This document shows, one piece after another, positions 1,625-54,464 of a DNA stretch of 58,259 bases; within the stretch, counting starts at the first letter, position 1; each line of letters opens with the position of its first letter. The stretch is from Nanobdellati archaeon (lineage in GTDB: Archaea > Nanobdellota > Nanobdellia > UBA10117). Under the pieces are notes generated by a model. That model was not told where the DNA came from. It saw nothing but the letters and a program-made list of their open reading frames with translations, and did not search any database. The position numbers were made by a program, and so were the translations under genes. The DNA lies in the NCBI GenBank assembly GCA_016204275.1, contig JACQKZ010000012.1, positions 1-58,259 of the forward strand, in the 5' to 3' direction.

Positions 1625-2350
1625 ATGGCTCCGGGCAAGTGGAAAGAAGTATTAGCCGATTTAGAGCCGTCAAATCCGGAGAAAGCCCTTAGACTGGAAA
1701 AGGAAGAAGGTATAGAAGAAACGCTTGCCAAGATGTTTAAAATATATGCTGGCAATGAATATGGTGGCCGCGTCACGGACGAAAAGCACCTCGAATACCG
1801 TATTAGCGATATCAAAAGCTCGGGACGTAATATAACTAAACAAGTTGTGGAAGAATTTTTTCTGCAGGTCGTTAGGTATGAAGATATATTTGTCGCAGGG
1901 CATGGGCATTATTATTCGCAGCGCACGGGCTTGTTTGCTTCTGCGCTTATTCAAGCCTCGTTTGAACAGGGCCACAATAATTTTGAACTGTTGTTGTTTG
2001 GAAACAGGCCGATATCTGACCTTGGCTATAAACTCAGGGGCGAGCCGGCCCGCAGGCTTTCAATTAGCATAACTACAGCTAATCAACCAAACAGCAGGGA
2101 ACCGAGGCCAAGTCTTTGGCTGGTTAATATGCAGTATGTTGACGCAACAATACTTGGGCTGAAGTGTGTGCCGTCGTTTTTAGTTGGCAATTCAAAAGAC
2201 TGTACATTTGCTTCGGACAGCCAGGATATACTTGACGCGATTTCTGAGATGGGCCAGCACCCATGCAAACTGGTTGATAACGATAAGCATACGACAGTTT
2301 ACCAAGGCCGGCCAGCAGATGCTGGCCTGCAGGTCATGGTGGAAGCATGA
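1625..2350 (+). CDS. tandem paralog 1 of 6, QGHNNFE-motif family, unknown function
   Basis: 241 aa. Shares with its neighbours an N-terminal LADLE..EK..EETLAKMFKIY block, SFEQGHNNFEL, LRGEPARRL and YVDATILG. Its TGA overlaps the next ATG (ATGA). Confidence 0.8.
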   Translation: MAPGKWKEVLADLEPSNPEKALRLEKEEGIEETLAKMFKIYAGNEYGGRVTDEKHLEYRISDIKSSGRNITKQVVEEFFLQVVRYEDIFVAGHGHYYSQRTGLFASALIQASFEQGHNNFELLLFGNRPISDLGYKLRGEPARRLSISITTANQPNSREPRPSLWLVNMQYVDATILGLKCVPSFLVGNSKDCTFASDSQDILDAISEMGQHPCKLVDNDKHTTVYQGRPADAGLQVMVEA

Positions 2351-3075
2351 ATAAAAATCTGAAAGATGTATTGGGAGGCCTTGAGCAGTCCCCGCCGGAG
2401 AAATCCGCAAGGATAGTAAGGGATGGACTGCTTGAAGAAACGCTTGCCGCGCTTTTTGAGATTTATGAAAAGAAACTGGCAATGAACTCAGGGTCGGGAA
2501 ATAGGTTTAACGTTGCGCCAAAGTTTTACAATTCGTGCCTGAAGTCAATGCCAAAAAGCAAGTACGATATAACAAAAAACGTTATAGCTGAATTTGCCCT
2601 TCGCGCCGCAAAATATGATGACAACTCTCATTTTGGCGCATACACTGGTTATTTTATCACTGCGCTAATGCAAACTTCGTTCCAGCAGGGCCACAATAAT
2701 TTTGAACTGCAGCTTGTAAGCAGCGAGCCGATTCATCACTTAGGCGCCAATTTGCGTGGCTGGCAAGACAGGAGGCTGGCGCTAAAAATTGTCAGTTGCG
2801 TTGAGTACAAGAAGCGTGATCTGATGAACCAGCCGTTGTTTTGGTTTACAAACATAGCATATATTGACGCAACCATACTTGGCATGAATATCGCACCGCA
2901 GGGCATAGGCGTAAATACAGTAAGCTCTTCATTTACGTCTGACAACAAATACATATTGGACGCAGTTGGCTATCACGGAAATCACACACGCCACTTTGTT
3001 CCGCGGACAGAAGTAAAAGTACCCGACGCCATAGCAAATCACACTCCGCAGATGCAGGCGTTGGCGGTGGCATGA
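2347..3075 (+). CDS. tandem paralog 2 of 6, QGHNNFE-motif family
   Basis: 242 aa. Motifs LGGLE..EK..LEETLAALFEIY, SFQQGHNNFEL, LRGWQDRRL, WFTNIAYIDATILG. ATGA overlaps at both ends. Confidence 0.8.
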   Translation: MNKNLKDVLGGLEQSPPEKSARIVRDGLLEETLAALFEIYEKKLAMNSGSGNRFNVAPKFYNSCLKSMPKSKYDITKNVIAEFALRAAKYDDNSHFGAYTGYFITALMQTSFQQGHNNFELQLVSSEPIHHLGANLRGWQDRRLALKIVSCVEYKKRDLMNQPLFWFTNIAYIDATILGMNIAPQGIGVNTVSSSFTSDNKYILDAVGYHGNHTRHFVPRTEVKVPDAIANHTPQMQALAVA

Positions 3076-3860
3076 TGAACCAAAAACATCTGAAGGAATT
3101 ATTCGGCGATTTGGAGCCGGCGGCCGTGGAGAGGCAGGCCAAGGTAGTTGTAGATGAAGATTTAGAAAAATCACTAAATAATTTGCTGGATGTGTATAAA
3201 ACTTCAGTGGCGTGCGAGATAAATCCATACCAGTTAGATGAGTTCGCATTTTATTCTATCTGCCTGGCGCAATTAAAAAGAACAAGCTGCGACATAACTG
3301 AAAAAGTAATATCAGAACTTGTCCTGCGGATTATGCGGCACAATAATATGTTTAACTTCGGGATAAACGCCGGCCAGTTCGTCACAGCATGCATACAGGA
3401 GTCATATTGGCAGGGGCATAATAATTTTGAACTCGCAATAACGGAGCCACTGCGCGGCCTTGGCACATACTTGAGAGGCGGGCCAGATAAAAAGCTAATC
3501 CTAACAGTAAATAATTTTGCGGCAGATTCAGATGTTCTTAACCGCGTAACAAATTTACAAGGCTGGTTCACAAATGCAGCGTATCTCGATGCAACAATCT
3601 GGGGCGCAGGCAACGTACCAGTGCGTACAGGATTTTTTTTTGGGTATAGAAAATATACAAATGGCACGCAGCCCGTCATAGGATATGAAGCAAAGGACTC
3701 TGTTTTTCGGGTTGATGACGCTGCCATATTTGAGTATTTGACTGCCGCAAAATATAGTTACGACAACGAAGTTTACCTGCTGGAAAAGCCAGAGCCAGAA
3801 GTTGTTGTGATAGAACATAATCACGAAAAAGCTGAACTCAATCTCGCAATTGAGGCATAA
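3072..3860 (+). CDS. tandem paralog 3 of 6, QGHNNFE-motif family
   Basis: 262 aa. Motifs LKELFGDLE, SYWQGHNNFEL, LRGGPDKKL, WFTNAAYLDATIWG. A C-terminal YLLEKPEPEVVV block and a tail ending AIEA. 1-nt TAATG overlap with the next gene. Confidence 0.8.
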   Translation: MMNQKHLKELFGDLEPAAVERQAKVVVDEDLEKSLNNLLDVYKTSVACEINPYQLDEFAFYSICLAQLKRTSCDITEKVISELVLRIMRHNNMFNFGINAGQFVTACIQESYWQGHNNFELAITEPLRGLGTYLRGGPDKKLILTVNNFAADSDVLNRVTNLQGWFTNAAYLDATIWGAGNVPVRTGFFFGYRKYTNGTQPVIGYEAKDSVFRVDDAAIFEYLTAAKYSYDNEVYLLEKPEPEVVVIEHNHEKAELNLAIEA

Positions 3861-4591
3861 TGCAGCCAAATAATAAATTAAAAGAACTGTTCGGCGATCT
3901 GGAAACGCCAAAAGAAAAAGCTATCAAGATAGAAAAAGACAGAGGACTGGAAGAAACGCTTGCTAAGCTGTCAGATATTTACAAATGCGCGCGTGTTTAT
4001 GATTTAGACTGGCCAGATAAAATTTACAAAACATATTTTGATTTGTTGGAAAAAAGAAATATAAAAATAACGCCAGAGTCAGTAGATTACTTTTTTTCGC
4101 GCATTAGTTACGAAGGCGGCGCAGCAAATGGAAGAAAAATGGGGCTGCTCTTAACTGCGATGGTACAGCTGTCTTTCCAGCAAGGACACAACAATTTTGA
4201 AATTGTAATCTGTAATAATCACCCATTGCATTTGTTTGGAATGTACCTGCGCGGCCAGCCCGATAAAAAACTTGCCATCCGAATCGATAATGTATATGAT
4301 GTAATGAACTACAAGGACGGCGAGCCGCACGCGTGGTTTAATAACATAGCATATCTGGATGTTACACTATCAAATGTGGATGCAAACGTACGTACCTTTG
4401 GCAGAAACGCAGGCAGCTCGGTTTTTAAGACAGATAATGAAAGCCTATTTTGTGAATTGCGCGACAGATTTGGGACGGCTAGCGAGCGGACGCCCGCAGA
4501 CAAATGTGAAGTTTACCTGCTGGCCGGCCACGGAGATGACTTAGCTGACGTGCCTGAGCCAACATCAGAAATGCAGTTATTAGAGGCATAA
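3860..4591 (+). CDS. tandem paralog 4 of 6, QGHNNFE-motif family
   Basis: 243 aa. Motifs LKELFGDLE..EK..LEETLAKLSDIY, SFQQGHNNFEI, LRGQPDKKL, WFNNIAYLDVTL. Tail QLLEA. TAATG overlap with the next gene. Confidence 0.8.
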   Translation: MQPNNKLKELFGDLETPKEKAIKIEKDRGLEETLAKLSDIYKCARVYDLDWPDKIYKTYFDLLEKRNIKITPESVDYFFSRISYEGGAANGRKMGLLLTAMVQLSFQQGHNNFEIVICNNHPLHLFGMYLRGQPDKKLAIRIDNVYDVMNYKDGEPHAWFNNIAYLDVTLSNVDANVRTFGRNAGSSVFKTDNESLFCELRDRFGTASERTPADKCEVYLLAGHGDDLADVPEPTSEMQLLEA

Positions 4592-5412
4592 TGAAACAAG
4601 ACAACCTGAAAAAACTGTTTGGCGACTTAGACGATCCAGTGCAAGAAAAAAGTATCAAGGTGACAAATGGTGGAACGCTTGATGAAACAGTAAAAGAGCT
4701 TTGCAGGATTTACGAGCATGTTGCTGACACGCGCGACGACAACCCGGACTTTACATATAAGCTTTGCAAGAGAAATTTGCCGCGGGATAAATATAAAATA
4801 AGCAACCAAGTAATCACTCAACTTTCTACCCAAATTTTTATGTATGATGCAGACATAGATTTTAAGGAAACCGCTGGCCCGTTCCTGACAGCAGCCATAC
4901 AAACCGCATTCCTTCAGGGCCACAACAATTTTGACATTTTATTTTCCGGCGCAACGCCGATGCATTATTTCGGCAGAGATTTGCATGGCTGGCCAGCTAA
5001 CAAGCTGAGAATGAATGTTATGGACTCTGGTTGCAGCGCGCAATCAGCAGGCTGGTTTTCCTATGCGCAGAACCTTGACGTAAAAATTACTGGCATGCAG
5101 CTAGTTCCAAGCCCGCATGCCCAGGTGCAAATTTTCGGGCAGTTTGGGCAAGTTCGGTATTTTACTAAACCAGACGACTTTGCGGTTAGCACAAAAAGAT
5201 GCAGGTTCGGCGTTGATAATAAAGACGTATTTTATTATTTAACAGAAAGATTTAAACTTCAGGAAAACTTGCGGTCAGTTGGCCAGCCATACGTTCCAAT
5301 GCCTGAAAGCGAAAGGTCGGAAGCATACTTGCTTGACAGGCCAGAGCCGGAAGTTATAGTACTGGATTTAGACAAAGCGATAAAACCGGAATTTGCACGT
5401 CTCGCTGTTTAA
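4591..5412 (+). CDS. tandem paralog 5 of 6, QGHNNFE-motif family
   Basis: 273 aa. Motifs LKKLFGDLD, AFLQGHNNFDI, LHGWPANKL. YLLDRPEPEVIV block near the C-terminus. Confidence 0.8.
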   Translation: MKQDNLKKLFGDLDDPVQEKSIKVTNGGTLDETVKELCRIYEHVADTRDDNPDFTYKLCKRNLPRDKYKISNQVITQLSTQIFMYDADIDFKETAGPFLTAAIQTAFLQGHNNFDILFSGATPMHYFGRDLHGWPANKLRMNVMDSGCSAQSAGWFSYAQNLDVKITGMQLVPSPHAQVQIFGQFGQVRYFTKPDDFAVSTKRCRFGVDNKDVFYYLTERFKLQENLRSVGQPYVPMPESERSEAYLLDRPEPEVIVLDLDKAIKPEFARLAV

Positions 5413-5430
5413 TTTCAGAATAATTTCAAA

Positions 5431-6132
5431 ATGGGAAACGATAGTATAAGAAAACTGCTTGGTGATTTGGAAGCCTTCCCGGACGAAAAACACCTGAAGG
5501 TCGAGGCAAATGAAAACCTGAATTCAAAAGTAGTTGACTTGTTAGTAAGTTACGAAGATAGTTTGTGCCGCTCGTGGGGTGATATGACACATAGCAATAT
5601 AAATGACTGTTACGACTTTTGTTTAAAATCGCTGTCCAATCAGTGCGCAGGCGTAGATAATGAAGTAATATCTACGTTTTTAGTACATACCAGCACGTAT
5701 TCGGAGCGTAAAAAGTATTCAGAAATTACTGGCCTATTTATAACTGCACTGCTGCAAACTGCGTTCGACAACAACCAGAATAATTTTGATATTATGCTTG
5801 CCAGCCAGCAGCCACTAAGTTTTTTAGGTCATACATTGCACGGCAGATGGAATAGAAGGCTCATACTAAAAGTCCGGGAAAGCAGCGAATGGAAAATGCA
5901 GTATTCGCCGTTGATTTGGTTTGAGTGTGCATCGCATTTAGAAGTCATGCTAGTTGGGGCAAACAATGTGCAGCTGCCCGCATTGAATTTAGATTGTAAA
6001 TATAAAACTGATGAGAAAAACATATTATTGTATGTAAATGATACTATTCGGCCAATTAAGCGGACCACGGTAGATATAATCAAACGCATGACTCAAGTAG
6101 ACATGATTAAAATCGAAAAACATCCAGTATAG
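5431..6132 (+). CDS. tandem paralog 6 of 6, divergent member
   Basis: 233 aa. Keeps IRKLLGDLE and the overall layout, but the core reads AFDNNQNNFDI and WFECASHLEV. It is separated by an 18-nt spacer rather than overlapping. Confidence 0.7.
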   Translation: MGNDSIRKLLGDLEAFPDEKHLKVEANENLNSKVVDLLVSYEDSLCRSWGDMTHSNINDCYDFCLKSLSNQCAGVDNEVISTFLVHTSTYSERKKYSEITGLFITALLQTAFDNNQNNFDIMLASQQPLSFLGHTLHGRWNRRLILKVRESSEWKMQYSPLIWFECASHLEVMLVGANNVQLPALNLDCKYKTDEKNILLYVNDTIRPIKRTTVDIIKRMTQVDMIKIEKHPV

Positions 6133-28491: not shown

Positions 28492-31400
28492 ATGACTGAC
28501 GCCCCAGTTACGCCAAATAACGTACTGTCTAAATTAAACGACTTGGCTAGCAAGAAAAAACAACTGGAGCAGCAGCAAGACACAATTTTACGGGCCAAAG
28601 ATACATATGCACAGATGCGGAGACAATATTTATCAGAACTCGAACAAGTTCGGGCAGGCATGGCAAGCTACCCAAATCTTTTGGGTCTTCTGGAACAGCT
28701 AGATGCGCCAGAATTGCAGGGTTTGGAAGAGCGTGTTTCTCCATCGCCGTATCAAATAAATGCCAAAAAAATTATTGGTCCATGTGTCTTGCAGGCAATC
28801 GATGAAGTGCCTGGCGGGCTTACGATACAGCAAATTTTTGAAAAACTTGGCAGCAGGTTTACGCAAGAAGAAGTAACAAATGCTATAAATAATTATAGAA
28901 TTTTTTTGAATGCAGACGAACAGGGAAAGTATACAGTTAGTGATAGGGGCAGGGCATCGTACACACGTTCCTTGGAGCGCGCAGCACGCAGGGCTAGCCA
29001 GCCAGCGCCAACAGCCCCATTGCCAGAAACATCAGAACAGCCCGAAGATGTAGGCCACGTAAACATCCGTAACTCAGTCTTGCGCATGGTAAAACAAAAC
29101 CCAAATATCGACATGGATAGAGTTGTTAGGGAATTGCCGAATTTTACACGTTCGCAAATTCACGATGCAGAATATGTTTTACTTGAAGCTGGCTATCTCA
29201 GAGTAGACAATGGCAGGTATACACTAACAGGCGCAGGTGAAGAAAGGCTTTCCAAGCCAGGCCATGGAGACATGGCGCAAAGAATACGCGAAAAGGCACG
29301 CACAGAAACGTTAGCAGTTAATTCAAGTAAACTTGCGGCCGAGCTCGGTGTTAGCGGCACACATGTCAGAAAAGTTTTAATTGAGGAAGGCTGGCAAGTT
29401 GCGTTTAAAAAATATTTTGTGCCTGGCAGCTGGGTAAGAGGTGGCGCGCCGGAGAAAAGTATGTTGGCAGAAGCTGTAGCCGCTGGAAATTCTATCGCGA
29501 AAATCGAGCGGCATCTTCGGCAGAGGGGCATACGCATTTCTACAGACACAGTGCGCAAATATCTTAAAATGTCTGAAATAGAAACAGAATCACAAGACGC
29601 GGATAAATCAAAATTAGCAGGCCGGCAACACGATACCGGAATGACAAAAGCAATAGCTGAACTTTCGAAGGATCGCGCGATATCCTGCGCAGATTTAGCA
29701 GAAGAACATAACTTAAATACTAATCATGTTCGCAACGTTTTGCGCCGCGCAGGCTGGAAAAATGTATTTCAGAATATTTATGTGTACAAAGATATGTTTG
29801 GTGAAGATGCCGGCAAGGCAATGATAACAAAAGCGTTTGAAACCGGAAAAAACATTGCGGGCGCACAGGAATTTTTGAAAAGCATCGGCATTGATGTGCA
29901 CATATGCCAGATAGCAGAGCTGGCAAGCGAGTCTGGACTTATAAATTTGGAAGAAACAATAAAGTCCGCCGCAAAGGAAATTGGCATTGACTACGATTCA
30001 CTTGCAAGCTTGCCAACCGCAAATGTAATTATGCGGGCCATGCAGGCATTTAAGCGCAATGGCAAGGAAGAAGTTACAGTTAACGATCTTAAACTTGTTC
30101 TGCCAAAAGTACATAACAAAAGAAAGCACTACGTAATATTTGATCTTATAAAAGACAATCTTATTGAAAAAACAGGCAACGCAACTTACAGATTAACAGA
30201 AGCAGGCGAAAAATTTAGTTTAACAAAACAAAAAATTGCAGGGAAAGTGCCGTACGAAATATCATTCCCTGTTGCAGAAGCAAGCGAGGAAGCGGTGTCT
30301 GCTGGCCTGCATGCTATGCTAGAAGAAGGCGCAGGCCTCGAGGGCGTGTTGGGCGCACTGCCAGTTGAATCACAAAAAACCCGCAGCATAAAGCCTCCCA
30401 TCAAACTGAATCTAAGCGAAACGATATTGTATGTTCTGCAAAAGTCGGATATTCACTTGACAGAAAACTACTTGGCGCAGGTACTTTCGCAAAAATATAA
30501 GGCAAACGATGTCTTATCGGAAATAGAAATTTTGAAGGCTAGGGGTGCAATTAAAATCGGCCCGGCAGGCAATCTGGTAGTTAGAAAAAGTGGCCTGCGT
30601 TTATTAGCGTCAAAATTTCACCCGAAGATAAAAGAATCTGATAAAGAAGAGGCAGGCACGCTGGCCAGCGTTCTGGAAGCAGGAACACAAGGCCTGCAAA
30701 TGAGCGAGTTTGATAAAAAAGTTTTTGCAGGCATAGACAGCGGCCCAATGCAGTTGATGTATATATTATATTCTAACGACAAGCAAGAAAATGCCATAAC
30801 AACTAGGTCACAAATTGAAGAATATGTCGCGGGTAAAAAACTTGCATCTGCACAAATCGAGTTATACAGACTAAGGAAGAATGGTTTTATTGAAAATGCC
30901 GGTGGTAAAAATGGAGTATACAAATTAACAAAAACCGGCCGCGAATTTATGCGCAACATTTTCAGCGAAAGATATGTGCATGAACTGGCAGGCCAGCCGC
31001 TGGCATCACCGAAGTTTGAAGCTGGCATTGCACAGCATCTCGAAAAAAATGAAAAAGCTGAATATGCCGCGCTTCTGCTTAGTGGGGAAGGCGGTTCGTT
31101 TGGTTACACTGATGTTGAAAGAATGTTTAGTGACTTAAGCCACGTTACAATTAAGCGTACTTTTCAAAAGTTAGCTCGCGATGGTGAAATAGAGCACGTC
31201 AAAGGCACCCATTCGCAATATTTAAAACTAACTGAACGCGGAGTCAAAGCCCTCGATGATAAATTTGTAAAACTAAAAGAGGCACACACTGCGCCAGCTT
31301 CAGTTACAGCCACACATGCAGTGCCGCAATTGCCTGTGGCGCAAAACGTTCCATCATTGTTAGAAGGCATTGACATCACACCGCCGCCAGCCGTAAAAGC

Positions 31401-32127
31401 CAGCCAGCAATCTGTTAGTGCTGTACCCATACCAGTCACGCCGCTGCCATCTGCAGGTGCAGAAGCAAAGCCACAGCCAAGTGCAGAAAAGAAAAGGGCT
31501 ATTGAGGATAAACTGATGAGATTTTGGAATGACCACAAAATTCCTGTGAGCGAAACACTTGTCGGCCAGATTATGAACGGCGATCACATAGAGAATTTCT
31601 TGGGCGAAAACGTAAAGCAGAGAAAAATCGGCGGAAAAATTGTTTTTGTGCCAAAGGGTGTTAGTGATATAACACTTGAACGATGGCGTAACTTTTATGC
31701 AATAGCCGCAGATGCAGAAAGCAAGGGCCAGCCAGTAATCATGGAGCAGGCAGCAATACTATTGCGCACAGATACAGATACAATAAGAGCGATGACGCAC
31801 GGCCTGAAAAAGAGCGGCTTAATTGGAGATGGCATAACACTCAAGCAATCTGAAAAAATTGATGTCCGCGACCCAGAAACAATACGCAACCGCGTAAGCA
31901 TGTGCCTGCGTTTCGGCGGTGTGCACGCAATAACAACTACAGATTTGGTTAATATGACTGGCCTGTCTGCGGTATCACTTTTGTCGCGCAGCCTCGACTT
32001 GGAAAATACGGTAAATGATTTAATTAAAAAAATATTTTCACCGCAGGACGCGAAAAAAATAAGCATATCACTTGATAAAGGAAAGGGAGGGAAAAATCCG
32101 GCGATAATCATATCGCGTAAAGAATAA
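28492..32127 (+). CDS. giant (1211 aa) protein made of a coiled-coil N-terminus and many winged-helix-like modules, unknown function
   Basis: At least 7-8 recurrences of a roughly 60-aa module ending in a ..G.Y.LT..G.. wing. Examples: GKYTVSDRGRASY, GRYTLTGAGEERL, ATYRLTEAGEKF, GVYKLTKTGREFM, SQYLKLTERGVKAL. An internal duplication covers about aa 262-360 and 385-475 (LAAELGVSGTHVRKVLIEEGW versus LAEEHNLNTNHVRNVLRRAGW). A Pro/Ala-rich linker lies near aa 940-1000. Confidence 0.75.
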   Translation: MTDAPVTPNNVLSKLNDLASKKKQLEQQQDTILRAKDTYAQMRRQYLSELEQVRAGMASYPNLLGLLEQLDAPELQGLEERVSPSPYQINAKKIIGPCVLQAIDEVPGGLTIQQIFEKLGSRFTQEEVTNAINNYRIFLNADEQGKYTVSDRGRASYTRSLERAARRASQPAPTAPLPETSEQPEDVGHVNIRNSVLRMVKQNPNIDMDRVVRELPNFTRSQIHDAEYVLLEAGYLRVDNGRYTLTGAGEERLSKPGHGDMAQRIREKARTETLAVNSSKLAAELGVSGTHVRKVLIEEGWQVAFKKYFVPGSWVRGGAPEKSMLAEAVAAGNSIAKIERHLRQRGIRISTDTVRKYLKMSEIETESQDADKSKLAGRQHDTGMTKAIAELSKDRAISCADLAEEHNLNTNHVRNVLRRAGWKNVFQNIYVYKDMFGEDAGKAMITKAFETGKNIAGAQEFLKSIGIDVHICQIAELASESGLINLEETIKSAAKEIGIDYDSLASLPTANVIMRAMQAFKRNGKEEVTVNDLKLVLPKVHNKRKHYVIFDLIKDNLIEKTGNATYRLTEAGEKFSLTKQKIAGKVPYEISFPVAEASEEAVSAGLHAMLEEGAGLEGVLGALPVESQKTRSIKPPIKLNLSETILYVLQKSDIHLTENYLAQVLSQKYKANDVLSEIEILKARGAIKIGPAGNLVVRKSGLRLLASKFHPKIKESDKEEAGTLASVLEAGTQGLQMSEFDKKVFAGIDSGPMQLMYILYSNDKQENAITTRSQIEEYVAGKKLASAQIELYRLRKNGFIENAGGKNGVYKLTKTGREFMRNIFSERYVHELAGQPLASPKFEAGIAQHLEKNEKAEYAALLLSGEGGSFGYTDVERMFSDLSHVTIKRTFQKLARDGEIEHVKGTHSQYLKLTERGVKALDDKFVKLKEAHTAPASVTATHAVPQLPVAQNVPSLLEGIDITPPPAVKASQQSVSAVPIPVTPLPSAGAEAKPQPSAEKKRAIEDKLMRFWNDHKIPVSETLVGQIMNGDHIENFLGENVKQRKIGGKIVFVPKGVSDITLERWRNFYAIAADAESKGQPVIMEQAAILLRTDTDTIRAMTHGLKKSGLIGDGITLKQSEKIDVRDPETIRNRVSMCLRFGGVHAITTTDLVNMTGLSAVSLLSRSLDLENTVNDLIKKIFSPQDAKKISISLDKGKGGKNPAIIISRKE

Positions 32128-40465: not shown

Positions 40466-41221
40466 ATGGCGTTCGAAGATGTAATTCAGCAGTTCGAGAG
40501 CGGCTGGCGCCCAAGCACAATTCGCGAAGCGCGCCTACTGCGGCGCGCCATTATTGTTTTGTCAGATACACAGTTAGATCTGTCAAAAAAAATGGCAGAT
40601 GTTTTATTGGCTACGGTAGAAAGACTGCGCCCTGATGGCATGGCGGGTGACCTTGATTCTGCCGAGGCGTATTCCACTGCAGGCACAGCATATCTGCCCG
40701 ATGAGAAGGGTGTTAACTATCTAAACATCGCGCTCGATACACTGCGTAAATTGGTCGGTGGTATTCCCATGACTATAGATGGAATGTATAATGGGCGGGA
40801 AATTAGGGATAGGGAAGTGGCAGAGCTGCGGCCACTAGAAATGAACGTGCTGATACAATATGTGCGCACTAATGAACGCCTGGGGTATTACTACCTGAAA
40901 TCCAAGCCAGCCGAGGCACTCGGGCTTCTATGGGATGCATCCGAAGCACTTAGCTGGCTAAATAAAACCACATGCGTAAGTAAAGATGACCGGCTTCTCG
41001 GTACATTGTACACACTTTCTTTTAGGGCATACGAAAATATGGGCGGCATATTAGCAAGGCACACTAGCGATCTAGAACTTGCCAGTGATTTTTATGTAAT
41101 CGCGCGGGGATTTGGAGATAAATTAAAGGCAAGCTGGCATATGGATGAGTCGTGCGAAGAAGTATACAATCGCATTGTTACCGCAACCGGCGGAGTTGCA
41201 GCGCCGCATAGTAAAGCTTAA
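40466..41221 (+). CDS. hypothetical protein (helical-repeat-like)
   Basis: ORF trimmed to MAFEDVIQQF. The upstream ORF extension is antisense to rps8e. Confidence 0.5.
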   Translation: MAFEDVIQQFESGWRPSTIREARLLRRAIIVLSDTQLDLSKKMADVLLATVERLRPDGMAGDLDSAEAYSTAGTAYLPDEKGVNYLNIALDTLRKLVGGIPMTIDGMYNGREIRDREVAELRPLEMNVLIQYVRTNERLGYYYLKSKPAEALGLLWDASEALSWLNKTTCVSKDDRLLGTLYTLSFRAYENMGGILARHTSDLELASDFYVIARGFGDKLKASWHMDESCEEVYNRIVTATGGVAAPHSKA

Positions 41222-41307: not shown

Positions 41308-41538
41308 ATGGATTTTGAAAGACCGTTGGATGCGCTCAATGCGGCGCGGAACAAACGCGTGTTAGTAGAACTAAAAAACAAGCATCAGGTTCTTGGCCAG
41401 CTGAAGGCATTCGACATTCACATAAATATAGTATTAGATGATGCCGAAGAAAGAGACGAAGATGGCAAGACAGCCAGAAAATTAGGGCAGGTCTTCATCC
41501 GCGGCGACATGATTGTTTTTGTCAGCCCTGCAACTTGA
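41308..41538 (+). CDS. Sm-like archaeal protein (LSm/SmAP)
   Basis: Sm1/Sm2 pattern RPLDALNAARNKRVLVELKN..GQLKAFDIHINIVLDDAEE..FIRGDMIVFV. Followed by rpl37e, as in many archaea. Confidence 0.88.
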   Translation: MDFERPLDALNAARNKRVLVELKNKHQVLGQLKAFDIHINIVLDDAEERDEDGKTARKLGQVFIRGDMIVFVSPAT

Positions 41539-41571: not shown

Positions 41572-41754
41572 ATGACAAAAGGCACGCCATCAGAAGGCAA
41601 GAAGAGTGGAAAGGTATCGCACATCAGATGTAGGAGATGCGGCTACCCTGCGTACCACAGGCAGGCCAGGCGCTGCGCGAAGTGCGGCTTTCCGGATGCA
41701 AAGATAAGGAAGTACGCATGGCAGAGCAAGAGATTAGGCAAAAGACTTTTTTAG
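41572..41754 (+). CDS. rpl37e: 50S ribosomal protein L37e
   Basis: MTKGTPSEGKK..HIRCRRCG..RCAKCGF zinc ribbon. 60 aa. Confidence 0.9.
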   Translation: MTKGTPSEGKKSGKVSHIRCRRCGYPAYHRQARRCAKCGFPDAKIRKYAWQSKRLGKRLF

Positions 41755-41895
41755 ATGCTTGTTAACTATTGCGTTCGGCAAAGCCGAATGCAATTAAAGC
41801 GCCAGCCGATTCCTTCAAAAAGGAGGTCTCGCAAACCAAAGTTTGCGAAATCGCGGCTGTGGTAGAGCAAGAGATTAGGAAAGAGGCTGTTTTAA
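41719..41895 (+). repeat. direct, in-frame duplication of the last 12 codons of rpl37e (copies 41719-41754 and 41860-41895)
   Basis: 30 of 36 nt are identical. Five of the six differences fall at third codon positions, and four of those are synonymous sense-codon changes (the fifth is the stop, TAG/TAA). There is a 16-nt identical core, AGAGCAAGAGATTAGG. The offset is exactly 141 nt. Confidence 0.85.
41723..41863 (+). mobile_element. putative miniature (gene-less) integrative element inserted in the rpl37e 3' end
   Basis: One 141-nt repeat unit. The spacer carries a 12-bp-stem hairpin (41768-41794) and an 8-bp-stem hairpin, TCGCAAAC-CAAA-GTTTGCGA. The first hairpin recurs inside the tRNA-Ile intron. 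Confidence 0.35.
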
Positions 41896-41900
41896 CACCA

Positions 41901-41911
41901 TTTAATTTTTA
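41901..41911 (+). promoter_or_regulatory. putative TATA-like box for the tRNA-Lys(CUU)/tRNA-Ala(UGC) unit
   Basis: TTTAATTTTTA centred about 30 nt upstream of tRNA position 1. Confidence 0.35.
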
Positions 41912-41936
41912 AACCATAATTTACGTTTTATTTCGT

Positions 41937-42126
41937 GGGTCCGTAGCTCAGTCTGGCTAGAGCGCCTGCCTCTTAATATTAAGAGCAAGCAGGATGTCGC
42001 GAGTTCGAAACGGAGATGCCTTCCGTTGGGTTGTGTAACAACCCGACCCGGGGAGGGTCAGGATGAGCGTCCAACTGGGGAGGGGTGGAACCCCTCCGCG
42101 GTTCCGAGAAAGTCTCGTCGGGCCCG
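41937..42126 (+). tRNA. tRNA-Lys: tRNA-Lys (CUU) with two introns: 12 nt in the anticodon loop and about 103 nt in the T-loop
   Basis: Hand fold: acceptor GGGTCCG/CGGGCCC (one G:U pair), D arm GCTC/GAGC, anticodon arm CCTGC-CTCTTA[12 nt]A-GCAGG, T arm GCGAG-TTCGAAA[42011-42113]-CTCGT. The exons sum to 75 nt. The intron is GC-rich with three hairpins. Confidence 0.7.
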
Positions 42127-42127
42127 C

Positions 42128-42358
42128 GGGCTGGTAGTCCAACCTGGTACGGCTTTCAAAGCCGCAGGAAAGAACGTCTGCTTTGCAACAGCAGCCTTTC
42201 TTTTTATTGCGAAAAGAAAGGCTCCTGGGCATCCAAAGAAAAGCGCGAGGGCATCTCGTGTTACTCGATGCCCAATGTCAGAAGAGCAGAAGGCTAGGGG
42301 TTCAAACAAGACGAAACTAGTTTTGCTAGTTTCTTGTCAGAAAATCCCCTCCAGTCCA
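42128..42358 (+). tRNA. tRNA-Ala: tRNA-Ala (UGC) with two clear introns (97 nt anticodon loop, 38 nt T-loop) and a probable third insertion of about 22 nt in the D arm
   Basis: Acceptor GGGCTGG/CCAGTCC gives the G3:U70 alanine identity pair. Anticodon arm TCTGC-TTTGCA[42188-42284]A-GCAGA. T arm AGGGG-TTCAAAC[38 nt]-CCCCT. The D region is about 22 nt too long and includes the hairpin CGGCT-TTCAA-AGCCG. The gene starts 2 nt after tRNA-Lys(CUU). Confidence 0.65.
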
Positions 42359-42413
42359 CTTATGATAAAAACCAAGTTTTTGGCATTTCGCCAACAGAGT
42401 TCGGCGTTACAAA

Positions 42414-42424
42414 CTTTTTTAAAA
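42414..42424 (+). promoter_or_regulatory. putative TATA-like box for tRNA-Lys(UUU)
   Basis: CTTTTTTAAAA centred 27 nt upstream of tRNA position 1. Confidence 0.4.
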
Positions 42425-42445
42425 CATCAATGTAGCTTTATTTTT

Positions 42446-42629
42446 GGGCCCGTAACTCAGCTTGGTTAGAGTGGCAGCCTTTTACGGCAGCCTTTCTTTT
42501 TTGCGAAAGAAAGGCTCCCGGGCATCCAAAGAAAATGCGATGGCATCTACGATGCCATAAACTTTGGATAACTGAGAAGAGAGCTGCAAGTCGAGGGTTC
42601 GAATATAATAGAAAATCCCTCCGGGCCCG
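42446..42629 (+). tRNA. tRNA-Lys: tRNA-Lys (UUU) with two introns: 97 nt in the anticodon loop and 12 nt in the T-loop
   Basis: Acceptor GGGCCCG/CGGGCCC, D arm ACTC/GAGT, anticodon arm GCAGC-CTTTTA[42485-42581]A-GCTGC, T arm GAGGG-TTCGAAT[42605-42616]-CCCTC. The exons sum to 75 nt. Confidence 0.75.
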
Positions 42630-42630
42630 C

Positions 42631-43143
42631 CTATTTCACAACTTCCAGCTCAACCAAAACTTCTGCAGTTGGCAGTAGCCAGCAGAAAAACCTTTCATAA
42701 ATTGCAGGAAATAAATTTATCAGCGGGTTAATTATTGGATTCAAAAATATCATCTCTGTCCGCGTAAAATTAAATCTTCGCGAGTTAATCTTGAATTTCA
42801 CAGGCGCGTAAAACGAAAAATCGGAAAAATAATCAAACGTAAATGCAGAGAAAAGCCGTTTATGGTCTGGATCGCGCCACGATACGCCGCAGCTAAAATG
42901 CGGGCTTCGCGTGCGTATTATCGCGCCAGGCTTGCAAATTCTTTTTAGCTCTTTCATGCAGGCCACTAAATCTGAAACGTGCTCAAGGACATGGGAAGCA
43001 AATACCTCGCTAAATGTGTTATCTGCCCAGGGCCACGGCGTTTTGTTTAAATCATGAACAACATCAATGCCCTGCAGTTTGAGCCCATCATGGTTTATCC
43101 AGCCAGCCCGTATGTCTAGGCCAGCCCCTAAGTTCAGCTTCAT
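42631..43143 (-). CDS. class I SAM-dependent methyltransferase (type 11-like)
   Basis: MKLNLGAGLDIRAGWINHD and ..FASHVLEHV.. motifs. 170 aa. Confidence 0.75.
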   Translation of the reverse strand: MKLNLGAGLDIRAGWINHDGLKLQGIDVVHDLNKTPWPWADNTFSEVFASHVLEHVSDLVACMKELKRICKPGAIIRTRSPHFSCGVSWRDPDHKRLFSAFTFDYFSDFSFYAPVKFKINSRRFNFTRTEMIFLNPIINPLINLFPAIYERFFCWLLPTAEVLVELEVVK

Positions 43144-43193: not shown

Positions 43194-44627
43194 ATGGTCG
43201 AACCCGAAAGATTGGAGAAACTCAACGCGCTAATCAAAGCAGGCATCGAGCCGTATCCATACTCATTCGGTAAAACACACGACGCAAAAGACATAGTTGA
43301 AAATTTCCCGAAATACGAGAACCAAAAAGTTTCCGTGGCTGGCCGGCTTATGTCTATCCGCGAGCATGGCAAGCTGGCCTTTGGGGATCTGCAGGACGGC
43401 TCAGGCAGGGTCCAGTTATGGCTCGGCGCGGAAGATTTGGGAAAAGATTTTGATCTTCTGAAATACATAGAAACCGGCGACATAATTGGTGTTCATGGAA
43501 TAGCAACAAAAACAAAGCGCGGCGAAATATCCGTAAAAGCAGATAAGCTGATTCTTCTTACAAAGACCCTGCGCAACTTGCCAAGCCAGTGGTATGGCCT
43601 GAAAGATATCGAAATCAGATACAGGCAAAGATATCTGGATTTAATTATGACTCCGGAACTCAAACAAAATTTTATTATTCGGACAAAAATAGTAGATGCA
43701 ATCCGAGAATTTCTAAATAAAAAAAGTTTTATTGAGGCAGACACGCCAGTCCTGCAGCCAATTTATGGCGGGGCAGCGGCACACCCGTTTGAAACATATT
43801 TGCGCGATTTGAAAATGAAGGTATATCTGCGGACTTCAAATGAATTGTATCTGAAAAGATTAATAGTTGGCGGATTTGAAAAAGTCTATGAATTTTCAAA
43901 AGATTTTAGAAACGAGTCTATAGATACAACACACAATCCTGAATTCACGCAGGTTGAAATCTATGAGTCATATGCGGACAGAGACAAAATCGCAGATTTG
44001 TTTGAAGAACTCTACGCCTTCGTTGCAAAAAAAATCTTGGGAACAACAAAAATAACTTACCAAGGCCATAAAGTTGATTTGAGCAAGTGGAAACGGCTTA
44101 CGATGATAGATGCAATTAAAGAAAAATACAAAATAGACGTACTTGCCATGGATAAAAAAGAATTATTAAATTTCGCGGAAAGTAAAAAGGCAAAAGTATC
44201 TGGCGAAGAGACTGAAGGTGAGATGATTAACGCAATATTTGAAACGTTTGACAAAGAAATAATTCAGCCAACTTTGATAATGGATCATCCAAAAGAAACA
44301 ACGCCGCTTTGCAAGGCCAGCCGAAAAAATCCGAACCTTGTAGAAAGATTTGAGCCGTTCTGCTGCGGCATGGAATTGGGAAATGCCTACTCAGAATTAA
44401 ACGATCCGATTATGCAGAGGAAATTGTTCGAGGGCCAGCTGAAGGGACGGGGTGCTGAAAAAGAATCATGGACATGCGAATTGGATGAAGATTTTCTGCG
44501 CGCGATGGAGTATGGCATGCCCCCAACAGGCGGAATAGGTATAGCAATTGACAGGCTGGCAATGTTATTAACAAACAGCGTATCAATACGCGATGTTATC
44601 CTGTTTCCGTTTATGTCGCGAGAGTAG
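43194..44627 (+). CDS. lysS: lysyl-tRNA synthetase, class II
   Basis: Motifs RYRQRYLDLI, FRNESIDTTHNPEFTQVE and GGIGIAIDRLAMLLT. 477 aa. Confidence 0.9.
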   Translation: MVEPERLEKLNALIKAGIEPYPYSFGKTHDAKDIVENFPKYENQKVSVAGRLMSIREHGKLAFGDLQDGSGRVQLWLGAEDLGKDFDLLKYIETGDIIGVHGIATKTKRGEISVKADKLILLTKTLRNLPSQWYGLKDIEIRYRQRYLDLIMTPELKQNFIIRTKIVDAIREFLNKKSFIEADTPVLQPIYGGAAAHPFETYLRDLKMKVYLRTSNELYLKRLIVGGFEKVYEFSKDFRNESIDTTHNPEFTQVEIYESYADRDKIADLFEELYAFVAKKILGTTKITYQGHKVDLSKWKRLTMIDAIKEKYKIDVLAMDKKELLNFAESKKAKVSGEETEGEMINAIFETFDKEIIQPTLIMDHPKETTPLCKASRKNPNLVERFEPFCCGMELGNAYSELNDPIMQRKLFEGQLKGRGAEKESWTCELDEDFLRAMEYGMPPTGGIGIAIDRLAMLLTNSVSIRDVILFPFMSRE

Positions 44628-54129: not shown

Positions 54130-54464
54130 TGGGCCCGGGCTGAATTTCTTCGACTGTATTTATTGCATTCGGCAAAGCCGAATGCGATCCCGTCTTTCTT
54201 GGGATACAAACAAAATCCACGAGGATTTTGTTGTACGGCCGAACATTGTTCGGTCGTAAACGTTAGACCTTCTTTCCGGAAAGAAAGAAGGGCTGTCGAT
54301 TCGAACAGCCGACCTCTGCCTTACTGATTCTTCGCCCGTAAAGTTTTGTGCGATTGTAAATCGCACTATTTTTCTTTTGGGGTTTCACAGAGAACTTTTC
54401 TTTTTTTAAAAAGAAAAGGGCTGTGTTATCAGAGCAGCGCTCTACCGGGCTAAGCTACGGGCCC
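54130..54464 (-). tRNA. tRNA-Ile: tRNA-Ile (GAU) with two large introns: 105 nt in the anticodon loop and 156 nt in the T-loop
   Basis: Minus-strand fold: acceptor GGGCCCG/CGGGCCC, D arm GCTT/GAGC, anticodon arm CTGCT-CTGATA[54322-54426]A-GGCAG, T arm GGCTG-TTCGAAT[54143-54298]-CAGCC, discriminator A. The exons sum to 74 nt of 335. Confidence 0.7.
54162..54188. repeat. palindromic hairpin module shared with the rpl37e-adjacent element
   Basis: ATTGCATTCGGCAAAGCCGAATGCGAT versus ATTGCGTTCGGCAAAGCCGAATGCAAT at 41768-41794 (25 of 27 identical). It lies inside the tRNA-Ile T-loop intron. Confidence 0.8.

Follow-up and report, generated by a model that had tools for sequence, protein, structure and literature searches.

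Integration of CRISPR spacers by Cas1-Cas2 duplicates a fixed stretch of approximately 30–37 bp of the target via a molecular ruler, and casposon target duplications are 14–15 bp long. Elements of the IS200/IS605 family are not known to generate a target duplication and insert 3' of a short tetra- or pentanucleotide. From the Thermoproteales, transposition of tRNA introns is known. Archaeal elements, including casposons in ef-2, integrate in 3'-distal parts of genes encoding proteins, where the open reading frame (ORF) is reconstituted; att sites or target duplications of such integrations measure 8–26 bp, and crenarchaeal att sites 29–69 bp (PMC6563490). For tRNA genes, a model has been proposed in which the integration of elements creates tRNA fragments and introns (PMC3293823), and tRNA gene disruption is increased in DPANN lineages (PMC5829648). 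The gain and movement of archaeal tRNA introns are still an open question, the current models being based on few cases of integrated elements. A literature search revealed no description of a hairpin element of 50–100 nt accompanied by a 36-nt duplication of a gene end. In the 58,259-nt stretch of DNA analysed here (the window), a first-pass annotation had proposed that the 3' end of a ribosomal protein gene bears the footprint of an insertion, with an insert devoid of genes. The footprint is indeed present, but it belongs to a miniature element with two hairpins that is also found in tRNA introns.

Ribosomal protein L37e (60 aa) is encoded on the forward strand by rpl37e (41572-41754, +; taken from the ORF list, with a PF01907 match on the identical protein), located downstream of an LSm gene (41308-41538) as in the usual archaeal gene pair. 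The product is 95% identical to the orthologue of a related genome (L010), and rpl37e is an intact functional gene, the end of which constitutes copy 1 of a 36-nt unit (41719-41754, +; TGGCAGAGCAAGAGATTAGGCAAAAGACTTTTTTAG), comprising the last 11 codons and the stop codon TAG (WQSKRLGKRLF*). Copy 2 (41860-41895, +; TGGTAGAGCAAGAGATTAGGAAAGAGGCTGTTTTAA), which reads W-stop-SKRLGKRLF-stop, is found at an offset of 141 nt and is identical to copy 1 at 30 of the 36 positions. The borders of the repeat are sharp, the flanks of the two copies show no mutual similarity, and a 16-nt core occurs at these two places only in the 58 kb with 2 mismatches allowed (chance expectation 0.02). The differences (C/T, C/A, A/G, A/G, T/G and G/A at unit positions 4, 21, 24, 27, 30 and 36) affect third codon positions in five out of six cases, and the remaining one converts CAG to TAG. 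Copy 2 is a non-functional relic, contiguous with the promoter region of the downstream tRNA-Lys(CTT) gene (41896-41936, +), in which a TATA-like TTTAATTTTTAAA and a TTTTTAAA box 23 nt from the tRNA start were recognized by eye; the box-to-start spacing appears to be equal in L010 and in a second related genome (L021). Translation of copy 2 by read-through or recoding of TAG was rejected: TAG is an ordinary stop in the window, ending 17 of the 58 long ORFs, and the offset between the copies is 100 nt in L021, where the spacer contains TAA, and 92 nt in a third genome (L029). The in-frame spacing in the window is therefore coincidental. The first-pass annotation had correctly reported the repetition of the gene end 141 nt downstream and the nearly synonymous differences between the copies, but the in-frame recurrence that it noted is without significance.

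Relatives were reached via the neighbouring lysyl-tRNA synthetase (LysRS) and LSm proteins, the homologues of which place the window among DPANN archaea of the Woesearchaeota/Nanoarchaeia kind. Four genomes proved useful, namely GCA_053535855.1 (L010), Logan SRR22387838 (L025), GCA_023245115.1 (L021, L026 and L027) and ENA ERZ1292643 (L029). Searches with L37e itself gave one match in the protein database (64%), up to 59% identity in genome contigs and up to 65% in metagenome contigs; nothing closer than 65% was obtained because rpl37e is often not called. The comparison comprises three to four informative genomes with at most three independent insertions at protein-coding genes, and all sequences are metagenome-assembled. 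L010 and L025 are the closest relatives: in the former, the methyltransferase encoded downstream is 89% and the DNA 82–84% identical to the window, while in the latter LSm is 95% identical and L37e differs at one residue (own reading). In both, the site is empty, with only one rpl37e end and a tRNA gene on the minus strand 13 nt behind it. L021 is more distant (L37e 75%, methyltransferase 85% identical) and its site is filled, with copy 1 at 375-410 and copy 2 at 475-510 (35/36 identical, offset 100 nt) enclosing a homologous spacer of 64 nt. L029 is more distant from the window than L021. Three tRNA genes form a block that separates rpl37e from the methyltransferase gene (window 41896-42633; L010 4474-5038); its orientation is forward in L021 as in the window, whereas L010 and L025 have it inverted. 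Inversion of this block as the source of the duplication was discarded, since no inverted copy of the unit was found at the other breakpoint.

The insert between the two copies (105 nt, 41755-41859, +) is supported as an element by its fold and by homology to the L021 spacer, the L029 spacer and a tRNA-Lys intron of L021. It starts with a 13-nt tail, followed by hairpin 1 (41768-41794, +), which has a 12-bp stem, an AAA loop and one G-U pair on this strand, by the linker TAAAGCGC and by hairpin 2 (41803-41859, +). The outer 6-bp stem of the latter, CAGCCG/CGGCTG (arms 41803-41808 and 41854-41859), is flush with copy 2 and encloses two nested hairpins, a perfect one of 8 bp (41829-41848) and one of 5 bp, so that the hairpin-rich nature ascribed to the spacer beforehand is evident. 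About 40 nt of the loop of hairpin 2 (41812-41826 and 41829-41848) are a window-specific insertion. The outer stem reads CAACCG/CGGTTG in L029, a compensatory exchange, and CAGCTG/CGGCTG in L021, where a G-C pair is altered to G-U. Within the 58 kb of the window, strong hairpins cluster in tRNA introns and in the rpl37e spacer. Terminal inverted repeats were not recognized by eye at the ends of 41755-41859, and no arm pair spanning the ends was obtained in a repeat search; the termini are ATGCTTG... and ...CGGCTG in the window and GTTGTATT... and ...CGGTTG in L029, without inverted match by eye. A known RNA family as the identity of the spacer was ruled out, as the Rfam scan gave nothing at the gathering score; at E-values up to 10, the sole match of the spacer was S4-Bacteroidia (16.6 bits compared to a gathering score of 34.7, E = 1.5).

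Four full copies of the element were identified in three genomes and at three kinds of site, in addition to one partial copy. The full copies are situated downstream of rpl37e (window and L021), after rps8e (L029) and in the anticodon-loop intron of tRNA-Lys(CTT) in L021. The duplication at rps8e was detected by scanning all ORF ends of the fetched loci for downstream duplicates; its 53-nt spacer consists of hairpin 1 (GTTGTATTCAGC/GCTGAATACGAC), the linker AAAAGCG and hairpin 2 (CAACCG/CGGTTG), again flush with copy 2. All four copies share the order of hairpin 1, AAAGCG linker and hairpin 2, the last being flush with the flanking sequence, and the orientation relative to the gene is identical in the window, L021 and L029, with hairpin 2 abutting copy 2 each time. 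In L021, a copy of the element makes up most of the tRNA-Lys(CTT) intron (589-662), to which the 3' part of the window spacer corresponds in reverse orientation with an exact 16-mer and an exact 9-mer, which are collinear and lie flush with the border of the intron. Hairpin 2 and the linker of the window spacer are identical to this intron copy at 24 of 24 positions, while the L021 rpl37e spacer matches less well, which argues against simple vertical descent and for mobility.

In the alignment of the four copies, 15 base pairs are formed and 100% of the cells are paired, with six pairs changed on both sides; none of 500 shuffles was as good, and slid controls reached 24–47% paired cells. Judged from this alignment, both hairpins are conserved through compensatory changes. 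The five G-U pairs all occur on the sense strand of the ribosomal protein genes. The window element scores 60 bits against the covariance model, this copy being itself among the sequences from which the model was built. A covariance-model search of 198 kb yielded no full copy beyond the four; hairpin 1 alone was found a second time in the window (54162-54188, +; 2 mismatches, 23.7 bits), inside the T-arm intron of the minus-strand tRNA-Ile(GAT) gene (about 54132-54463). The spacer therefore belongs to a small family of dispersed non-coding elements. Both searches proposed in the first-pass annotation were thus productive: empty sites are present in the two closest relatives, and further copies of the spacer in L021 (rpl37e and tRNA-Lys intron), in L029 (rps8e) and, as hairpin 1, elsewhere in the window. 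A viral or plasmid source was rejected, as the 36-nt unit, searched in degenerate form, had no match in viral contigs, the 16-mer of the element gave 20 matches in contexts that were all unrelated, and a longer pattern gave none.

Counted backwards from the final base of the stop codon, the repeat spans 36 nt at rpl37e in the window and L021 and at rps8e in L029. In the latter, three further bases past the stop codon also match, giving a unit of 36(+3) nt with copies identical at 38 of 39 positions (offset 92 nt). The lengths of 36, 36 and 36(+3) nt at two different genes represent at most three events, and the right border relative to the stop codon is +0, +0 and +3. For the copy in the tRNA intron of L021, no clear flanking duplication was found. 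The association of one element family with two gene ends and the same length of 36 nt is best explained by duplication from the target at insertion. It appears to behave as a target duplication of fixed length that spares the gene and not as an element-borne mimic of one att site. An imported gene end, as had been suggested for rpl37e, fits less well with the element in L029, which is flanked by exactly 36 nt of the rps8e end, as expected for a duplication made from the target.

With a probability of about one half, the additional 141 nt represent a mobile element, small, non-coding and with two hairpins, that inserted directly after the rpl37e stop codon, plus a direct duplication of the last 36 nt of the gene, the element belonging to a low-copy family of Woesearchaeales-like DPANN archaea. 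The duplication would have been made from the target at insertion as a long target-site duplication of fixed length, with cuts set 36 bp apart by an enzyme supplied in trans. The upstream copy would keep the gene whole and the downstream copy would be a relic; the differences between them would have arisen later and mostly in the functional copy, by synonymous change or by allele replacement through recombination. Neither an integrase nor a transposase, reverse transcriptase or Cas1 was identified by Pfam among the window ORFs of at least 100 aa in 58 kb and the inserted ORFs of relatives, and neither TnpA nor TnpB was found. As no such enzyme is encoded in the window, it would have to act in trans. 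The inserted ORFs of relatives were considered as integrases and rejected, because those of L010 (103 aa), L025 (99 aa) and L026/L027 (243–270 aa) are all without Pfam match. Several points count against a target-made duplication. A length of 36 bp is far above the usual transposon target duplications, and an enzyme acting at the DNA level should not sense a stop codon, while viability alone would permit about 36 other positions. A neutral copy 2 should furthermore change faster than copy 1, yet third codon positions account for nine of the ten differences between the copies. Finally, there are only three insertions at protein-coding genes and four copies in 198 kb.

This preference for third codon positions emerges when the four gene-end duplications are pooled (P = 3.6e-4): almost all of the differences are synonymous, and only one or two changes map to relic copies. 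This third-position bias is not fully explained. The near-identical copies of L029 and L021 and the 30/36 identity in the window look like an age series. Lineage-specific codons are present in both copies of each genome, S and L in the window and G and F in L021. In the window, AGA and CTT of copy 1 are common to L010 and L025, GGC, AAA and TAG are unique to copy 1 in the alignment, and copy 2 retains AGG and CTG as in L021. The 3' half of copy 2 shows two differences from L025 and two from L021 (read from the alignment) and, by this comparison, is ancestral-like. According to the first-pass annotation, such a pattern can arise only if both copies evolved while encoding L37e. This is too strong, since the same result is obtained when the functional copy undergoes allele replacement or gene conversion; allele replacement from other lineages, gene conversion between the copies or an integration event with an imported end would each give the observed picture.

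The last of these possibilities corresponds to a Campbell-type integration, the model of the first-pass annotation, in which a copy of the rpl37e 3' end borne on a circular element recombined with the end of the gene in the chromosome, either by a tyrosine integrase acting in trans or by homologous recombination of the host. Copy 1 would then be attL (host 5' and element 3' part) and copy 2 attR (element 5' and host 3' part), and excision between the repeats would lead to empty sites. The synonymous-only pattern fits such an event, as do the skew of the window differences (five in the last 16 nt and one in the first 20; P approximately 0.013, own count over synonymous sites), the ancestral-like 3' half of copy 2 with GGC, AAA and TAG confined to copy 1, the termination of the repeat at the stop codon and the identical left border (TGG) in two lineages. 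Integrations of this type with reconstitution of the ORF are known from archaea (PMC6563490), and the LSm gene of L010 provides a possible parallel. Its 3' end is duplicated (3796-3825 and 4215-4244; 28+2 nt, two of them past the stop codon) with two differences, both synonymous, and an identical core of 20 nt; the duplication encloses a 389-nt insert with a minus-strand ORF of 103 aa without Pfam match, and its downstream copy is the original one, contiguous with ancestral intergenic sequence. It is absent from the window, L025 and L026. Nevertheless, a Campbell-type integration is considered unlikely. The element of 50–100 nt is flanked by the end of another gene in L029, again over 36 nt, and a fixed attP cannot give two targets; a circle of 141 nt is implausibly small, and three independent decays to the same two hairpins are improbable. 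In addition, no integrase was found, either among the ORFs inserted in relatives or among those of the window with a length of 100 aa or more, and no attP-like copy was detected in viral contigs. The parallel to integrase-mediated insertion drawn in the earlier annotation persists for the ORF-reconstituting insertion into a 3'-distal gene region, which is documented in archaea (PMC6563490), and is not supported for the integrase itself.

The presence of the duplication and of the forward-oriented tRNA block in both the window and the more distant L021, and the lack of both in L010 and L025, could also be a consequence of an ancient, vertically inherited duplication, whose downstream copy was kept by selection or repeated gene conversion and lost in the L010/L025 branch upon inversion of the tRNA block. 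Copy 2 could serve in the upstream region of tRNA-Lys(CTT) or in a structured 3' UTR. The lineage-specific codons shared by both copies of each genome would then reflect concerted evolution, and the 3' half of copy 2 would have stayed unmoved from the inferred ancestral sequence. The confinement of G-U pairs to the mRNA-sense strand agrees with this explanation, and CTGTYYTA appears to persist upstream of the TATA-like box of tRNA-Lys(CTT) in L010 (own reading). It is nonetheless quite improbable, given that an unrelated gene of L029 carries the same element and a near-identical duplication of 36 nt, and that the window spacer is more similar to the L021 intron copy than to the L021 spacer. 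Copy 2 of the window also contains a nonsense change, and a repeated gene end has no known function.

The tRNA-Lys(CTT) gene downstream of copy 2 (41937-42128, +) contains an 11-nt intron in the anticodon loop and an intron of about 105 nt in the T-loop; the gene is called by ARAGORN after in silico splicing, but is overlooked by standard scans and gives only a weak Rfam tRNA match. Altogether, four tRNA genes of the window (41937-42633, + and 54132-54463, -) were missed by ARAGORN and at the Rfam gathering score because they are interrupted at non-canonical positions by several large introns. Once the introns had been removed in silico, ARAGORN additionally recognized tRNA-Lys(TTT) (about 42447-42631), the 3' end of which abuts the stop codon of the methyltransferase gene, and tRNA-Ile(GAT) (about 54132-54463). 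A candidate tRNA between the two tRNA-Lys genes (about 42130-42362) is probably tRNA-Ala(TGC), with G3:U70. The introns of this Ala-like tRNA (42189-42242) and of tRNA-Lys(TTT) (42485-42535) share a 12–13-bp hairpin, AGCCTTTCTTTT...AAAGAAAGGCT followed by CTCCYGGGCATCCAAAGAAAA, with 29 of 30 positions identical, and resembling introns are present in L010 and L021. The shared hairpin suggests a transfer of introns between tRNA genes.

Since part of a genuine tRNA intron shows homology to the element, and the organism is rich in large non-canonical tRNA introns, the spacer might be a bulge-helix-bulge intron or a processed RNA in the rpl37e transcript, cut by the tRNA splicing endonuclease, with the duplication representing equivalent exon ends. 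Endonucleases of broad specificity are described for DPANN archaea (PMC5829648). However, no such motif connects corresponding positions of the two copies in a scan that is too permissive to be informative, and in all three genomes the 4 nt preceding hairpin 2 lack complementarity to the 4 nt that follow the putative bulge (read from the alignment). Moreover, rpl37e is complete up to its stop codon without splicing, removal being needed only for the tRNA-Lys copy in L021, and the element at rpl37e is antisense relative to that in the tRNA intron. This explanation is very improbable. A mimicry of the anticodon arm of tRNA-Lys(CTT) as a target by the antisense of the rpl37e end was also rejected (ungapped flank identity of only 4/12).

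Further observations concern the surrounding genes. Additional small insertions are located in the LSm-rpl37e interval; in L025 (1457-1756, 1780-1833), the 99-aa ORF is flanked by AAGCTTAAA and AAGGCTTAAA. Short hairpins between LSm and rpl37e, each following CATAACAAAAAC, occur three times in two genomes (L025; L021 1-227), and the L021 hairpin unit CCAGAGGAAAAAGC...CTTGGCCAAGGAAA...CCTCTGG recurs inside the tRNA-Ala intron of L021. Six tandem paralogous ORFs of about 240 aa without Pfam match are located at 1625-6132 of the window; a homologue of this family (25–27% identity) is the 243–270-aa ORF found directly after LSm in L026 and L027. Between the divergent rps8e and LSm genes, the window harbors a 251-aa ORF without Pfam match (40466-41221), of which L028 has a 72% identical version; it is absent from L010, L025 and L026, where the gap between rps8e and LSm is about 30–90 nt. 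A 1211-aa ORF (28492-32127) has many weak winged-helix/HTH-like Pfam matches, all below the curated cut-offs. The class II LysRS (43194-44627) is 78% identical to the enzyme of the L008 lineage, compared to 71% for L010 and 69% for L021, which share 82% with each other. This disagrees with the L37e and methyltransferase trees, and the gene may have been replaced by recombination.

One and the same element is encountered in three states, i.e. as a tRNA intron, as an insert at two ribosomal protein gene ends and as absent from the empty sites of sister genomes, and these states render the insertion chemistry testable with respect to duplication length, target rule and strand specificity. Because the gene end is regenerated, the case also illustrates how an essential gene can take up an insert without harm. 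The relatives of the element at a second ribosomal protein gene and in a tRNA intron link gene-end insertions with the spread of archaeal tRNA introns, and the finding explains why tRNA genes are missed by tRNA finders and rpl37e is skipped by gene callers in such genomes. Somewhat less likely than not, the family represents an undescribed class of miniature DPANN elements that insert beside the stop codons of essential genes for translation as well as into tRNA genes, where they become introns, with a ruler-type enzyme duplicating exactly 36 bp and thereby regenerating the gene end. If this were true, the class would provide a concrete mechanism at the DNA level for the gain and spread of archaeal tRNA introns.

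Compared to the archaeal insertions into genes for proteins, the 3' end of a conserved translation gene is likewise targeted here, the direct repeats flanking the insert include the gene end, one of them overlapping the 3' end of the target, the ORF stays intact, and relatives possess empty sites. Those elements are, in contrast, kilobases in size and encode an integrase or a casposase, whereas the inserts of 53–105 nt described here contain no gene and no terminal inverted repeats, and are accompanied by a duplication of 36 nt (instead of 8–26 bp) at two different genes. No integrase was found in or near the insert by the Pfam scans, and the family is not tied to one self-carried att site. 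A casposon was excluded, as genes for Cas1 and PolB were not found in these scans, terminal inverted repeats are lacking and the duplication is 36 nt long, and a diversity-generating retroelement was excluded in the absence of a reverse transcriptase and with differences not confined to the adenines of a template repeat. With MITEs, the element has in common that it is small, non-coding, structured, dispersed, flanked by direct target repeats and presumably mobilised in trans. It differs from them by two internal hairpins instead of terminal inverted repeats (ends inspected by eye), by a duplication several times the usual target-site length, by its strict position beside the stop codon and by its low number of four copies in 198 kb; a related autonomous element was not detected either, no transposase being encoded by window ORFs of at least 100 aa.

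The duplication of a target stretch of fixed length may resemble, by analogy, the repeat duplication by Cas1-Cas2. Here, one homologous structured element is inserted and not variable spacers, and CRISPR was rejected since its defining features, a cas gene, an array and a leader, are absent. Strand-specific imperfect hairpins near both ends are shared with IS200/IS605-derived PATEs, REP-like elements and integron attC sites, in which G-U (G-T) pairs are also restricted to one strand; this suggests recognition of a single strand. Mobile archaeal tRNA introns differ in that the host here is the end of a protein-coding gene, the element runs antisense to the copy in the intron, a parent element carrying a recombinase was not seen and splicing is not needed. 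They are similar in that one copy of the element constitutes most of a tRNA-Lys(CTT) intron, hairpin 1 is found in a tRNA-Ile intron and the introns of different tRNA genes of the window share sequence, and the integration model of tRNA intron gain (PMC3293823) likewise comprises a partial gene duplication together with the insertion.
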